Assembly (NCBI GenBank): GCA_964629365.1
Contig: CAZVRB010000003.1
Coordinates: 17,711-81,710 of the forward strand
From: an uncultured Leptospiraceae bacterium
Lineage (GTDB): Bacteria > Spirochaetota > UBA4802 > UB4802
DNA: 64,000 nucleotides
Direction of reading: 5' to 3'
The notes below the pieces were generated by a model. The model worked only from the letters and a program-made list of their open reading frames with translations, did no database searches and was not told the origin of the DNA. The position numbers and the translations under genes are program-made. Positions 33,570 through 42,237 of this stretch are shown here, in pieces; the stretch's first letter is position 1; the number at the start of each line of letters is the position of its first letter.

Positions 33570-34085
33570 TTATTTGAGATGCAACCAGTCTTCTTCATTG
33601 TTCACAATTGTCATTCTTTTTGATCTTTTACCGTTTAAAAATTGCTCCATCCATCCTGTTCTAACTTCAACTGCCATATCAAAAGAAGGGCTGTATGGTT
33701 TTATGTCAAGCAAAGGAGTTTCGTTTACCATGTCCACACCCTTGATATACAGGGTATCATCATCAATTTTAACTAATTCAACAAGGGTTATACCTATATG
33801 ATTAGGCCTGTGTGGAGACCGTATAGAGAATATTCCCCGCTGACAGGTATCCATGTATGGTTTTGCTGTCAGCTTGACACTGTTGCTCTGATGAAAAAAA
33901 TACACCAGTATAACATGACTGAATCCATCAAGGTCTCTCAAACCCTCTTTATATTCCGGAAACACTTTTACAGTACCACTGGTATCGGAAGCCATTCGTC
34001 CCTGTATTGGGATACCATTTGATATGGTAGCAAATGGTGTCATGATTTTTCCAATGGGTGTTAATAGAATTTCAGATTGTTCCAA
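33570..34085 (-). CDS. TrmO/TsaA (YaeB)-like domain protein
   Basis: LTPIGKIMTPF...GFSHVILVYFFH pattern of the YaeB-like SAM-binding beta-barrel. Overlaps the upstream gene by 14 nt. Confidence 0.6.
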   Translation of the reverse strand: MEQSEILLTPIGKIMTPFATISNGIPIQGRMASDTSGTVKVFPEYKEGLRDLDGFSHVILVYFFHQSNSVKLTAKPYMDTCQRGIFSIRSPHRPNHIGITLVELVKIDDDTLYIKGVDMVNETPLLDIKPYSPSFDMAVEVRTGWMEQFLNGKRSKRMTIVNNEEDWLHLK

Positions 34086-35818: not shown

Positions 35819-36661
35819 TCAAAATTGAAGAACTGTGCCCGCTGAAGCATTTACAAATATACCAGGCAGCATTTCAGCCAGTTGTTCCTGCACCTGTTCT
35901 CCTGTACAATGATTGGCGGCCAATAACTGCACATCATACTTCTTGAATATATCAATCGCCCTTTCAACATAATCCCGGGGGGCACTGGATAAATGTGTAC
36001 CTCCCACAATGCCATAAATCCTGTCAACCTGTCTGACATCGGCAACCTTTTCTATTATTTCAATTATTCCGGCATGGGCGCATCCAACGCATAAAACCAG
36101 CCCTGAATCAGTATCAACAATCAGTGAGGTGTCATCATTGAATGGATCATGAATAAATGTGTCATTATCTTCACACATAAGACGCTCATCCCAGGAAATC
36201 CAGCTCTCTGGCCTTGGTATATCACTTAAAGAGGTAATAAATGAATTTACTGGTTCAACATTTCTAATAAAACGTATATCCGCGCCACTTTCAATTAAAA
36301 GATCATATGAATACTGTATTCCAATATCAGCTGCAACAGGCTGATTATCAACATTCGTAATAGCTGCCTTTCTCTTAAACGCGTCAGGGTGAACATGAAC
36401 CGGGACGCCCCTGTCACGGGCGGAAAGTAGTGCCAGGAGTCCCCCGGTATGATCATAGTGACCATGACTGAGTACTATCCTGTCGATAGATTCCGGATCG
36501 ATATTCATGATTTCCATGTTCTTCAGCAATGACATGCTCTGACCTGTATCAAGCATAACACGTTCGTTTTGCTCGATCATCATGGATAACCCATGTTCGG
36601 CATACAGCCCCGACCCGGGTACAGCCGTATTTTCACTGATGACAGAAATAGTTGTCTTCAT
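35819..36661 (-). CDS. MBL-fold metallo-hydrolase
   Basis: VLSHGHYDHTGG motif (HxHxDH). Confidence 0.75.
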   Translation of the reverse strand: MKTTISVISENTAVPGSGLYAEHGLSMMIEQNERVMLDTGQSMSLLKNMEIMNIDPESIDRIVLSHGHYDHTGGLLALLSARDRGVPVHVHPDAFKRKAAITNVDNQPVAADIGIQYSYDLLIESGADIRFIRNVEPVNSFITSLSDIPRPESWISWDERLMCEDNDTFIHDPFNDDTSLIVDTDSGLVLCVGCAHAGIIEIIEKVADVRQVDRIYGIVGGTHLSSAPRDYVERAIDIFKKYDVQLLAANHCTGEQVQEQLAEMLPGIFVNASAGTVLQF

Positions 36662-37446: not shown

Positions 37447-37869
37447 TTAACTCCTTTCATCATAGTCGTTCTTTTTAATAATTTCACTGTAATACGGACA
37501 TCTACCATTTCTGTTTCTTCTACGCCACCTGCAGCCCGGCATTGTAAACTGTTCGATGTTCAATTTCCCGTTGCAGAATGCTATCAATATTTCACCAGTT
37601 TCTCCAATTACTCCCGGGATAATATCTATTTCATTGTTCAATAACATAACCGCCTGCTGTCGACTGATGGCACTGCATATAACCAGGTTTATGCCGTATG
37701 ACTTTAGAAATGAAATCTTTTGCCGCTCATTGGCTAATGAATGCTCCATGATTCGTATGTCATTCACTTCACCGTCCCTGATATCAGCTATCAGAAAGGT
37801 TCCGGCAACATCGAAAAGAGGTGCCACACGTTCCCTGTAGACCGGTATTGCTATTTTTTTCACTTCCAT
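37447..37869 (-). CDS. NifX-like (Nitro_FeMo-Co) domain protein with C-terminal Cys/Arg-rich tail; first gene of the cluster
   Basis: KKIAIPVYRERVAPLFDVAGTFLIADI... matches the fold. C-terminal tail PGCRWRRRNRNGRCPYY. ATG at 37869. Confidence 0.65.
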   Translation of the reverse strand: MEVKKIAIPVYRERVAPLFDVAGTFLIADIRDGEVNDIRIMEHSLANERQKISFLKSYGINLVICSAISRQQAVMLLNNEIDIIPGVIGETGEILIAFCNGKLNIEQFTMPGCRWRRRNRNGRCPYYSEIIKKNDYDERS

Positions 37870-37882
37870 ACCATGATATAAA

Positions 37883-37897
37883 GCAATTCATGTGCCA
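37883..37897 (-). promoter_or_regulatory. Sigma-54 (-24/-12) promoter: TGGCACA-TGAA-TTGCT
   Basis: Minus-strand sequence TGGCACATGAATTGCTT matches the RpoN consensus TGGCACG-N4-TTGCW with correct GG-N10-GC spacing. It sits directly upstream of the 37869 start codon and beside the sigma-54 activator gene. Confidence 0.6.
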
Positions 37898-38036
37898 GTG
37901 GCATCACGATTCATTTTATTTAATATATTACAGTCTATATTCTACTTTTTCTTCGAATTTGATTTACAATATATCATATTTGTTGACATTTTGTTTGGTA
38001 ATTGCGGTGATATTGAAATTTCGCAGGCAAGAAAAA

Positions 38037-38085
38037 TTGCATAATGCAATACTGGTGGCATATTTGTGTTGCATTATGCAATACT
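38037..38085. promoter_or_regulatory. Two copies of palindrome TTGCA-N3-TGCAA (+ATACT) spaced 32 bp apart; candidate upstream activator sequence
   Basis: ttgcataatgcaatact (38037-38053) and ttgcattatgcaatact (38069-38085). They lie 150-190 bp upstream of the sigma-54 promoter and overlap the 3' end of the activator gene. Confidence 0.45.
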
Positions 38086-39406
38086 ATCGTATGTGATACT
38101 TGTTTATTTTTCTCCAAAGGGTTGACTTATCAATTCCAAGCTCATCGGCTGTTTTCGAACGGTTCCATTCATTTTTCTCAAGTGTCTTTTTTATATATGA
38201 TTTTTCAAGTTCTTCCAGGGTAACAGGTTTCCCGGTATCGATACTGCTTTGCCTGAGATGGGCAGGAAGATGCTGTGCCTGTACATAGGGCTCCTTGCAG
38301 AGAACGAATGCGTGTTCTATTATATTTTCCAGTTCACGAATGTTCCCCGGATACTGGTATTCCATGAGAATATTCATAACCGTATCTGATACACCTTCTA
38401 TCTCCCTGTCCCTGATAAGGTTGAATCGTCGAACGAAATGCTTTACAAGGATGGGAATATCTTCTTTACGGTCCCGCAGGGGTGGAAGCTTGATATTAAC
38501 GATATTCAACCTGTAATACAGGTCATCCCGGAAAGCACCTGACTTGACTTCATCATGCAGCACCTTGTTGGTTGCCGCTATTATTCTCACGTTGGCTTTT
38601 TCGCCTTCTACTGCTCCCAGTGGTTCGTAGGTTTTCTCCTGTAAAAAGCGTAGAAGTTTCACCTGCAGGGCGATAGAAATTTCACCTATCTCATCAAGAA
38701 AAACTGTACCACCCTCTGCTGTAGCGATTTTTCCAGGTTTATCCTTTCTAGCGTCTGTAAATGCACCGGCCTTGTAGCCAAAAAGTTCGGATTCCAGCAA
38801 CGTATCAGGAAGCGCGGCACAATTAATTACAACAAGCCTGTTATCAGATCTCCTGCTCAGATTATGAATGGCCCTGGCAATCAGTTCTTTTCCTGTTCCA
38901 CTGGGCCCCTCTATAAGTACAGAACTGTCGCTTTCGGCTATATCAGGCAAAATCCCGAAAAGATCCATCATCTGGCTGTTTTTGCTGACAATGTCTTCGA
39001 ATGTATATTTTGATTCTATAGTTTTGCGCAGCTCAATAATATCTGAAATATTTCGAAATGTTTCAACACCGCCGATTATAGTACCGTCAGTATTGCGCAA
39101 TAATGCAGTACTGATACTTACGGGTATCTTTTCACCTTCGGCGTTTACAATATATATTGTTTTGTTAACTATATTTTTACCGCTGGTGAATGTTTCACGC
39201 AAGGCGCAGGAGTGTTCACATATATTAGCATGAAAAACCTCAAAACAATACTTCCCCAATGCCTCATCTTGTGATATATGCAGAATGGATTGGGCAGCCT
39301 TGTTAACCGATGTTATCCTGTAATCCAAATCAACGGTAAACACTCCATCGGCAATACTATCCAGTATGATATTGTCACTGTTAAAACCACTTTCAATTGA
39401 ATTCAT
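38084..39406 (-). CDS. Sigma-54-dependent transcriptional activator (bEBP): PAS sensor + AAA+ sigma-54 interaction domain + Fis-type HTH
   Basis: GPSGTGKELIARAIH Walker A, ESELFGYKAGAFTDA GAFTGA motif, and a C-terminal HTH. The N-terminal PAS domain carries C-x4-H-x3-C-x3-C. Confidence 0.9.
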   Translation of the reverse strand: MNSIESGFNSDNIILDSIADGVFTVDLDYRITSVNKAAQSILHISQDEALGKYCFEVFHANICEHSCALRETFTSGKNIVNKTIYIVNAEGEKIPVSISTALLRNTDGTIIGGVETFRNISDIIELRKTIESKYTFEDIVSKNSQMMDLFGILPDIAESDSSVLIEGPSGTGKELIARAIHNLSRRSDNRLVVINCAALPDTLLESELFGYKAGAFTDARKDKPGKIATAEGGTVFLDEIGEISIALQVKLLRFLQEKTYEPLGAVEGEKANVRIIAATNKVLHDEVKSGAFRDDLYYRLNIVNIKLPPLRDRKEDIPILVKHFVRRFNLIRDREIEGVSDTVMNILMEYQYPGNIRELENIIEHAFVLCKEPYVQAQHLPAHLRQSSIDTGKPVTLEELEKSYIKKTLEKNEWNRSKTADELGIDKSTLWRKINKYHIR

Positions 39407-39480
39407 TTTACTTGTACTCGTTATTATCGTATTTCATCAATGCGATTATGCCTCTTGCTGTAGTTACCCTTTTCTACGAC

Positions 39481-39519
39481 ATAAAAAAACGATGTACAGC
39501 ACATCCTGTACATCGTTTT
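39481..39519 (-). terminator. Rho-independent terminator of the ect operon
   Basis: 12-bp perfect inverted repeat AACGATGTACAG/CTGTACATCGTT with a 6-nt loop, followed on the minus strand by T7. Located 50 nt downstream of the ectC stop. Confidence 0.65.
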
Positions 39520-39568
39520 ATCACAAAGTATTGTATTTTTCAATAACTATTGCATTTTGCAATGTTTT

Positions 39569-39967
39569 TTATTTATCACCCGGTGGCGGATATGAACCAT
39601 CTTCCCGGTGAACTTCTTTTCCCGTAAGTGCCGGATCAAATACACATATCAGCCTCATGTCGCTGTTAAACGCACGCAAATAGTGTTCATCATGCTCATT
39701 GAGGGCATACATGGTACCAGGATTTATTGGATATTTCTTTCCATCCGTGATGGTTTCCACCTCACCCTCACCTTCAATACAGTATACTGCTTCAAGATGA
39801 TTCTTGTACCATATATGAGTTTCGGTATTGGCATATATTATGGTTTCATGAAAAGAAAACCCCATTTTATCATCTGCCAGTACCATTCTCCTGCTGGTCC
39901 AGTTCCCATTTTCAGCATGAACTTCTCTTTCAGAGTTCTTAATCTCGTCAATTGTGCGGACTATCAT
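39569..39967 (-). CDS. ectC: L-ectoine synthase
   Basis: 132 aa cupin. [33 protein letters not shown]...[28 protein letters not shown]...HDEHYLRA...[21 protein letters not shown] is near-identical in pattern to characterised EctC. Confidence 0.92.
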
Positions 39968-41244
39968 GCGGGTTCTTCTCCTTTCAGCATGGCTTCACGC
40001 TTTTCCAGCACCGCACCTATGGACTCGTCAATTATGCCAAGACCTTCTTTCAACAATTCTTCTTCGATGACAAGTGGGGGCAGAAACTTGAGCACATCAT
40101 CCTTTGCACCCGCAAGTTCGATTATCAATCCCCGTTCAAAAGCCGCCTCTGACACGTCAGCACAGAATCCCAGGAATGGTATATGCAGCCCGTATATCAA
40201 TCCACGTCCACGCACGGATGCGTCCAGGCTGGGATATTTTTTGACGATTTTCTCAAGTTCTTCTTTTAATATCTTTTCCTTGTAAAACACCGCGTCAGAC
40301 AGGTTTGCATTTTCCCAGTAGCTGAACAGCTTGGTGGATGCCACGAAGGCCAGGTTGTTTCCCCTGAATGTACCGGTATGCTCACCTGGTTTCCACTGGT
40401 CTAATTCGGGCTTTATAAGAACCAGTGAAAGTGGCAGACCACCGCCGATTGACTTTGACAGAACGATAACGTCAGGGTTAATACCCGATTCTTCAAAGCT
40501 GAAAAATGTACCAGTTCTTCCATTTCCGATCTGTATCTCGTCAGCTATCAGCAATATGTCGTAATCACGGCATATCTTTTCTATTTCCTGCAGCCATTCG
40601 TTTGACGCCACATTCACACCGCCTTCAGCCTGAACCGTCTCAACAATAATTGCCGCCGGTATATCCACGCCGCTGCTCACGTCATCAAGAAATTTTCTCA
40701 TATACTCAGCAGTATTTACACCATCACCGAAGTAGTTATCATAGGGCATAAAGGAAACATTCTGCCTGTTAATGAATGCTTCGTCCCTGTAAAAAGCGTT
40801 ACCGGTTACCGCCATAGAGCCCATGGTAAGCCCGTGAAAACCGTTGGTAAATGAAATGATATTGGATCTGCCTTTTACCATGCGTACAAGTTTCAACGCT
40901 GTCTCAACCGCGTTTGTACCCGTAGGACCGGCAAACTGAACCTTGTATTCCATATGCCTGGGTTCCAGGATGGTGTAATACAACGCCTCAAGAAAGGCTT
41001 TCTTCGCGGTTGTCGCCTTGTCAAGGCCATGCACGATACCGTCATTCTGTATATACTCTATAAGTGCCTCTGACACCATCGGGTTATTATGGCCATAATT
41101 AAGTGTGCCCGCACCGGCAAAGAAATCAATATATTCCTTGTCCTGTTCATCGAAAAGCTTTGACCCTTTTGCCTTGTTAAAAATCGTAGGAAAATGGCGT
41201 ACATAACTTCTCACCTGTGATTCCATCTGTTCGAATATTCTCAT
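39964..41244 (-). CDS. ectB: Diaminobutyrate--2-oxoglutarate transaminase
   Basis: N-terminus [55 protein letters not shown] is diagnostic for EctB. Class-III aminotransferase. 4-nt overlap with ectC. Confidence 0.92.
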
Positions 41245-41789
41245 TGTTCCTCCTTGTTTTTTTTTCTAACTATTTTACTGCTGAAGGGTCCGATCCTGAA
41301 AAGATCCTCAGGTTCGTGCTCTTCACCTCCAAACATTTCCGCGGAAAAATAATCACTCTCATTGCATTCAGTCTCGAGATGAGATGCAAGATTTCTGAAA
41401 AATCCACGTGAAGCGGAATTTGAAGGGGTAACAGTAGTTTCAATAAACTGAATACCATCAAGATGTGACCGCGATAGAATATCCAGTATCATCTTCCTGG
41501 CAAGTCCCATTTTTCGCATGGTTTTGCTTACTGCCACCTGCCATACGAAAAGGGTATCATCCTTTTTAGGATGCCTGTATCCTGATATGTACCCTGTTAT
41601 TTCCCCATCACTTTCAACTACAACACTTGTTGTATCATGATGGGCACATATCAGCAGGTAACTGTATAATGAATTTAAATCCAGTGGTTTTGACGCGTCA
41701 ACAAGCTTGTAAACAGCAATACCATCACCCGGTTGGGGTTTTCGAAATATTATACTACTTGTGTTGTTCGAGTCATCATTTTCACTCAT
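41241..41789 (-). CDS. ectA: L-2,4-diaminobutyrate acetyltransferase (GNAT)
   Basis: IFRKPQPGDGIAVYKLV...LDLNSLYSYLL...TSVVVESDGEITGYISGY pattern of EctA. Position upstream of and overlapping ectB. Confidence 0.85.
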   Translation of the reverse strand: MSENDDSNNTSSIIFRKPQPGDGIAVYKLVDASKPLDLNSLYSYLLICAHHDTTSVVVESDGEITGYISGYRHPKKDDTLFVWQVAVSKTMRKMGLARKMILDILSRSHLDGIQFIETTVTPSNSASRGFFRNLASHLETECNESDYFSAEMFGGEEHEPEDLFRIGPFSSKIVRKKNKEEQ

Positions 41790-42237
41790 ACCAGTATCTT
41801 TTTATTACATGTAGTATCAAAAATAAACAATACATTTCATATAAGTTAAATATACTGTATTTTTGAAGACAAGTCGGCAGGAAAATTACGTTTTTGCCTG
41901 TTTTTCAGAGAAAAAAGGCTTACCACTACAGTTGTTCGTTACCCTGCTTTGACATTACAACCCTCTTTCTAATACCTGTCAACAACAAAATGAGAATTAT
42001 CACCTTTTCAGATATGTATATTTATATATTTAATACTTACATATTGTTGTATTTACACTTATGTGGTTTTATGTTAATTATTTTTTGGTAACAAAGGCTG
42101 ATTACAGTAATTTTTAACAGGTACATGGATATTACATTGACAATAATGATACAACATTGGTACTATTGAAATGTTTCTTAACAATAGTATTTGTTTATAA
42201 TTCTAGAAATAATAATTATCTTTATGGTACGCTTAAA

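Follow-up and report, generated by a model that had tools for sequence, protein, structure and literature searches.

The NtrC enhancer at glnAp2 is made of tandem dimer-binding palindromes, placed on one helical face about 100-150 bp ahead of the sigma-54 promoter, where they nucleate the active AAA+ oligomer. The palindromes that concern us here, three copies of TTGCA-N3-TGCAA, flank a sigma-54 activator gene in a 64-kb stretch of DNA (the window) from an uncultured Leptospiraceae bacterium, and the closest described system is that of OrpR (DVU2106) from Desulfovibrio vulgaris Hildenborough (DvH). OrpR is a bacterial enhancer-binding protein (bEBP) with the PAS-AAA+-HTH architecture, the PAS domain holding a redox-sensitive [4Fe-4S] cluster, with C52, C61 and C65 together with the conserved D/E54 as its proposed ligands (PMC8359166). 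Its sigma-54 contact loop is listed as GAFTDA (PMC4641369), and its regulon is restricted to two orp operons (PMC8359166, PMC4641369, PMC3897727). The 17-bp operator, GGGCGYRTTTTGCGCCC, flanks orpR on either side, and OrpR binds it in electrophoretic mobility shift assays and in chromatin immunoprecipitation sequencing (PMC8359166). OrpR also represses its own sigma-70 promoter by overlap of operator and promoter, in a negative loop (PMC3897727). The circuit in the window is an ordinary new example of this OrpR/orp regulatory system, in a spirochaete-like bacterium.

The gene flanked by the palindromes encodes, to judge from its translation, an OrpR-type bEBP, matched to DvH OrpR by the published description of the latter. 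The features examined were domain order, spacing of Cys and acidic residues, the GAFTDA loop, synteny with orp genes, the -24/-12 promoter and the operator position (for DvH-type operators, about 90-130 bp upstream of orp start sites), and all of them are present. Pfam domains follow each other as PAS_9 (residues 20-122), Sigma54_activat (139-305), AAA_lid_14 (311-391) and HTH_8 (396-437). The PAS domain contains the iron-sulfur (Fe-S) motif C-x-E-x6-C-x3-C (C54, E56, C63 and C67), with offsets (+2, +9, +13) identical to those published for DvH OrpR (PMC8359166), and is predicted to hold a redox-sensitive Fe-S cluster. The GAFTDA variant of the sigma-54 contact loop is present in the translation as FGYKAGAFTDARKD, and the recognition region of the HTH reads LGIDKSTLWRK. 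The elements of the circuit are:

39406-38084, minus strand: orpR, a 440-aa PAS-AAA+-HTH_8 sigma-54 activator (listing of open reading frames (ORFs), Pfam and NCBIfam scans)
38069-38081, no strand: site 2, promoter-distal predicted OrpR operator TTGCATTATGCAA, matrix score 22.8
38037-38049, no strand: site 1, promoter-proximal predicted OrpR operator TTGCATAATGCAA, extended form ATTGCATAATGCAATAC, matrix score 23.0
38036-37898, minus strand: AT-rich spacer (about 27% GC) that separates enhancer pair and promoter, holding TATCACCGCAATT
37897-37882, minus strand: sigma-54 promoter TGGCACATGAATTGCT of the orp operon, TGGCAC-N5-TTGCT, with -24 GG and -12 GC
37869-32652, minus strand: eight-gene orp operon (ORFs, Pfam and NCBIfam)
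39550-39562, no strand: site 3, strong lone predicted operator TTGCATTTTGCAA, matrix score 22.4

The three copies had been proposed at these positions by a sequence-only reading of the window, and both direct reading and pattern search recover all of them as exact matches. The search with TTGCANNNTGCAA gives three exact matches in total within the 64-kb window (38037, 38069 and 39550), against a mean of 0.20 per window in 100 dinucleotide shuffles of the same DNA; the assertion that the copies are far above chance therefore holds for the exact form. A chance cluster in AT-rich intergenic DNA could still appeal to the single shuffle of 100 that reached three matches anywhere in the window, and to the 51 matches with up to two mismatches against 48 expected in the window, a background level which leaves only the exact form special. 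All three copies, however, fall within 1.5 kb around one gene, an event that we estimate from the shuffle rate at about 2e-6 and that is far rarer than three copies window-wide. With the same motif enriched at the same place in orthologous loci (below), we count this explanation as refuted and its probability as negligible.

The comparative set consisted of 160 orthologous loci, 80 from genomes and 80 from metagenomes, belonging to Spirochaetota, Zixibacteria, Planctomycetota, Desulfobacterota, Geobacter-like bacteria, KSB1 and other groups. In the 250 bp that follow orpR there are 42 exact copies of the 13-mer (1.09 per kb), as opposed to two in 666 kb of far flanks (0.003 per kb), which amounts to an enrichment of about 360-fold. 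A matrix seeded only on TGCA-N3-TGCA, with the outer T/A left out of the seed, recovers these outer letters at 87% and extends the consensus to RYATTGCA-WWW-TGCAATRY; this accounts for the ATAC(T) extension seen earlier in the window, where sites 1 and 2 do share ATACT and do lie 32 bp apart from centre to centre. Spacing of three helical turns turns out to be a feature of the family, with a peak at 32-33 bp (31 of 45 pairs), and GC-core palindrome pairs at 31-34 bp follow orpR in 26 of 154 loci as compared with 3 of 1265 control windows. The promoter-proximal site is usually found 98-112 bp from the -24 GG across loci, and the pair as a rule about 100-150 bp upstream of the sigma-54 promoter. 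In the window, the distance to the -24 GG is 147 bp for the centre of site 1 and 179 bp for that of site 2 (the sequence-only reading gave 150-190 bp), and site 2 ends 2 nt from the stop codon of orpR (38084-38086), a junction that this reading overlooked.

The closest locus in the set, L001, comes from a Leptospiraceae metagenome-assembled genome (MAG), with 96% amino-acid identity and the same ectBC-orpR-orp layout. The spacer between orpR and the orp operon is 85% identical in the two; both arms of sites 1 and 2 are unchanged, while centres and flanks differ. Such retention of letters bears on the idea that the palindromes act as RNA hairpins, which would terminate or stabilise the transcripts of orpR and of its upstream neighbour ectC at their 3' ends. 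The palindromes are inverted repeats, and sites 2 and 3 start a few nucleotides from the stop codons at 38084 and 39569. Against this, their 5-bp stems have two G-C pairs and no U-run, hence they are not called by the terminator scan; arm letters are kept across loci with no compensatory change; a separate genuine terminator already follows ectC; and the Rfam scan gave only chance-level matches. We regard the RNA reading as very improbable.

Three other Spirochaetota loci (L004, L005 and L006, 65-67% identity) lack orp genes within 3 kb, and neither a sigma-54 promoter nor a strong operator is found close by. The targets of these OrpR-like genes, if any, would lie elsewhere.

Operator type co-varies with the HTH of OrpR, which ties the motif to this protein and not to some other factor. 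We distinguished D/N-type HTH, LGI[DN]xSTL[FWY]RK, and H-type HTH, which reads LG[IM]HK[TS]TL[WY]RK in the N4-type loci. The exact N3 site is present in 26 of 59 D/N-type loci and in 2 of 69 H-type loci (Fisher p=8e-9, although the co-variation statistics ignore shared ancestry, which counts against the argument). D/N-type loci carry N3 sites at 2.98 per kb against a background of 0.11. H-type regulators with W or Y have the same half-sites at a 4-bp spacer (1.38 per kb against a background of 0.07), and H-type regulators with F have N3 sites. The OrpR family thus splits on a single TTGCA half-site, D/N or H with F going with N3, and H with W or Y going with N4. The N4-type loci (e.g., L011, L039, L079, L112 and L116) resemble the window in their TTGCA/TGCAA half-sites, position after orpR, downstream orp operon and pairing at 31-32 bp, and differ from it in the 4-bp instead of 3-bp spacer and in the H-type instead of D/N-type HTH.

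The DvH operator can be read as GCGCA-TTT-TGCGC, i.e., with the same xxGCA-N3-TGCxx core as the sites in the window. The window operators do not equal the DvH consensus; the match is limited to the central 9 bp of site 3 (TTGCA-TTT-TGCAA), GCATTTTGC, which the two have in common. Intermediate forms seen in other loci (GTGCATTTTGCGA, TCGCA...TGCGA) indicate divergence of a homologous operator. These observations also bear on the suggestion that the sites belong to another transcription factor, for instance a global regulator of redox or anaerobiosis, an idea that might be entertained because TTGCA resembles many AT-rich operator half-sites and the sigma-54 -12 box. The motif, however, tracks orpR across distant phyla at a fixed place after the stop codon, its spacer length changes with the OrpR HTH subfamily, no further exact copy exists in the 64 kb, and in DvH OrpR binds the operator that has this core both in vitro and in vivo (PMC8359166). 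A different factor is in our opinion a very unlikely owner of these sites.

Conserved position and pairing, HTH co-variation and the core shared with DvH together identify sites 1 and 2 as OrpR enhancer sites, and it is very likely, as far as sequence can tell, that they are the upstream activator sequences through which OrpR acts on the sigma-54 promoter of the orp operon. The original proposal, which assigns the palindromes to the adjacent bEBP as its upstream activator sequences, is supported by their position, pairing and spacing across phyla, and is further backed by the arms that do not vary between the window and L001, by the HTH co-variation and by the operator core in DvH (PMC8359166). 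In the mechanism that we infer, OrpR dimers would bind the two 13-bp palindromes after the orpR stop codon by way of the C-terminal Fis-type HTH, with a predicted full operator RYATTGCA-N3-TGCAATRY, and the 32-bp interval would place the dimers on one face of the helix. The AAA+ oligomer, assembled about 150-180 bp upstream of TGGCAC-N5-TTGCT, would loop over the AT-rich spacer and use ATP to open the sigma-54 closed complex, so that the eight-gene orp (orange-protein / Fe-S assembly-like) operon would be turned on at low redox potential.

Several observations weigh against this assignment. The enhancer-promoter distance of 147 bp exceeds the mode of the family. Outer arms are TT/AA in the window; in DvH they are GC/GC plus GG/CC. 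One promoter is served in the window by a tandem pair with a 32-bp spacing, whereas DvH is described with one 17-bp site per promoter. Finally, the consensus of integration host factor (IHF), WATCARNNNNTTR, was not found in 37898-38036 at up to one mismatch, whereas IHF is required in DvH; at 27% GC, the spacer might be bent intrinsically or by another protein.

The promoter itself, TGGCACATGAATTGCT, is the sole perfect TGGCAC-N5-TTGCW in the 64-kb window; it is conserved in L001 and occupies an equivalent position in many orthologous loci. Only about 13 nt separate its -12 GC (37884-37883) from the annotated ATG of the first orp gene (37869), thus the orp mRNA would have no leader or hardly any, unless translation starts at a codon further downstream. 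Many orthologous loci likewise have a promoter that ends only 10-25 nt before the first orp gene. In the spacer, presumed to be the looping segment, TATCACCGCAATT (38013-38001, minus strand) is perfectly conserved in L001 amidst otherwise diverged sequence. Within this block, CGCAAT resembles a half-site and lies about 34 bp from site 1; the block could serve as a third half-site or be bound by a DNA-bending protein. A sigma-54-like match over site 1, TGCCACCAGTATTGCA (38060-38045, minus strand), was rejected, as it is without the essential GG and is not conserved in L001; it departs from the sigma-54 consensus by a single mismatch (GG changed to GC), with the operator half-site TTGCA equal to a -12 box, and the resemblance is probably coincidental. 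Plus-strand ORFs over the motif regions (37821-38096, 37892-38044, 38044-38223 and 39366-39611) have no family support and were likewise set aside.

The operon encodes two Nitro_FeMo-Co (orange-protein-like) proteins, a DUF5320 protein, an MBL-fold protein, two MinD/ParA-ferredoxin ATPases, a TrmO-like protein and an Mrp/NBP35 protein. The 'orange protein' (orp) cluster is composed of such genes, and the same set follows orpR in most orthologous loci. The genes for the MBL-fold hydrolase and the TrmO-like (TsaA family) protein, at 35819-36661 and 33570-34085 on the minus strand, are outside the six D. vulgaris orp genes, yet recur in some orthologous loci.

Site 3 is found on the other side of orpR, where three more features have to be considered:

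39531-39543, no strand: weak partner of site 3, TTGTATTTTTCAA, with two mismatches, matrix score 14.1
39519-39486, minus strand: intrinsic terminator hairpin, 14-bp stem and U-run, -22.9 kcal/mol, z -5.9
41789-39569, minus strand: ectA, ectB and ectC, all three above NCBIfam cut-offs

A complete ectABC operon for ectoine synthesis thus lies directly upstream of orpR in this Spirochaetota/Leptospirales-like genome, and the ectC-orpR junction is common only to L001 among the 160 loci. The hairpin presumably ends ectABC transcripts; its stem is identical in L001, with two loop bases changed (TG to CC), a pattern expected under selection. Site 3 is placed between the ectC stop codon (39569) and the terminator and begins 144 bp upstream of the orpR ATG at 39406, close to the 145 bp given before. 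Neither the degenerate fourth copy, 19 bp from site 3 on the orpR side, nor the terminator that separates the site 3 module from orpR had been noticed in the sequence-only reading.

The third copy had been taken as a sign of autoregulation. DvH offers a precedent (PMC3897727), and lone operators upstream of orpR recur in other loci; at this locus the proposal stays an inference, and a terminator intervenes. We lean slightly, on sequence grounds, towards site 3 and its weak partner being an autoregulatory module. On the minus strand, one arm of site 3, TTGCAA (39561-39556), resembles a -35 box, and the weak partner, identical in L001, overlaps a -10-like AAAAAT (39539-39534) and a -35-like TTGAAA (39543-39538). 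OrpR might limit its own sigma-70-driven expression from this separate module by covering these hexamers. Site 3 is not the enhancer of a second local promoter, since ectC lies upstream on the same strand and a search of both strands of 38100-42200 gave no sigma-54 promoter at up to two mismatches.

As a rule, a strong site found upstream of orpR serves an orp operon transcribed divergently (L030, L034, L036, L045, L072, L074, L076, L128, L157 and L158), which is the D. vulgaris arrangement. Lone exact operators in the same place, with no divergent operon, are found in L011, L014, L025, L085 and L104; exact N4 sites upstream of orpR number six (one with a divergent operon) against 0.43 expected (P=6e-6). 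A strong site with a weaker partner at 19-21 bp is seen in four independent lineages (the window with L001, L014, L085 and L104), where the background rate of sites of the weaker type is about 0.00045 per bp, and enhancer pairs are never spaced by 19-21 bp. In several loci a TTGCA[A/T] arm is followed after 16-17 bp by a -10-like hexamer (AAAAAT in the window, TATATT in L085, TATTGT in L011 and TATTTT in L014), a pattern that is not significant alone. These strong-plus-weak upstream modules would fit the published D. vulgaris loop with its overlap of operator and sigma-70 promoter (PMC3897727).

Other facts speak against autoregulation through site 3. A strong terminator separates the module from the orpR ATG; the sigma-70 hexamers put forward as candidates are weak, with 8 of 12 matches or without the -7 T; and no upstream site exists in the remaining Spirochaetota relatives, L002-L007. 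Identity to L001 is about 95% across the block that spans site 3 and the terminator and about 82% in the 80 bp beyond it, but with one close relative only, this conservation is not statistically informative; a scan of metagenomes for closer relatives found none above 68% identity.

If OrpR activates from sites 1 and 2 while site 3 is not autoregulatory, the latter might be what is left of a divergent orp promoter region of an ancestor, displaced by ectABC; or it might be an auxiliary enhancer acting at a distance, whose third dimer would be brought in by looping over 1.66 kb. An ancestor of the required kind is plausible, as upstream sites serve a divergent orp operon in the ten loci just named. 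Three bEBP dimers would make one hexamer. The intervening terminator argues against simple promoter occlusion, and the upstream site is missing from the closest other Spirochaetota loci. An enhancer remnant, however, should have a partner at 32-33 bp, and the partner of site 3 is at 19 bp, as in the other lone upstream modules. Site 3 is, moreover, a perfect match with a top score, lone upstream operators recur where no divergent operon exists, and the site 3-terminator block is better preserved relative to L001 than the DNA next to it. We consider a non-autoregulatory site 3 a possible, though doubtful, alternative. An OrpR enhancer pair driving the orp operon, with a separate autoregulatory module upstream of orpR, is the joint explanation in which we have good confidence.

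Where orpR transcription would start can be the subject of speculation. One alternative promoter is TTGAAA-17-TGaTAAAAC (39543-39515), which would place the start inside the 5' arm of the hairpin, and an orpR transcript begun there would escape termination. Two -10-like hexamers, CATAAT and GATAAT, lie between the terminator and the ATG; neither is conserved in L001. In the same interval, TTGATG-18-TACAAG would give a leaderless orpR mRNA.

With these results, an anonymous regulator and operon of an uncultured spirochaete can be annotated as an OrpR/orp redox-controlled system. Current understanding is not overturned, and the circuit behaves as known sigma-54 enhancers do. What is new comes from the comparison and not from the window, namely an operator consensus, two spacer geometries that track the HTH, and two site architectures. 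The cross-phylum consensus RYATTGCA-N3/4-TGCAATRY could be used for prediction of OrpR regulons in MAGs; until now D. vulgaris was the only organism in which this bEBP had been studied. The N3/N4 split with the HTH is a natural experiment on how Fis-type HTH dimers set half-site spacing. One may tentatively go further and combine the N3/N4 geometries, an activating pair at 32-33 bp, an autorepression pair at 19-21 bp and a terminator-embedded orpR start in one scheme, which we judge unlikely to hold in full. If true, the 19-21 bp strong-plus-weak pair on the orpR sigma-70 promoter would give dose-dependent autorepression, and the spirochaete would have combined this module with the ectABC terminator, orpR transcripts starting in the hairpin and escaping termination.

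Compared with the NtrC enhancer at glnAp2, the window has the same tandem palindromes upstream of a sigma-54 promoter on one helical face; NtrC differs from the window OrpR in that it is a response regulator and not a PAS/Fe-S protein, and in its operator sequence and half-site spacing. Compared with DvH, the window has one unidirectional eight-gene operon instead of two divergent three-gene operons, and ectABC with its terminator instead of orp1 as the upstream neighbour of orpR; its host is a Spirochaetota/Leptospirales-like MAG, unlike Desulfovibrio vulgaris Hildenborough. In both, the targets are sigma-54 promoters of orange-protein cluster genes, and operators are found on both sides of orpR.

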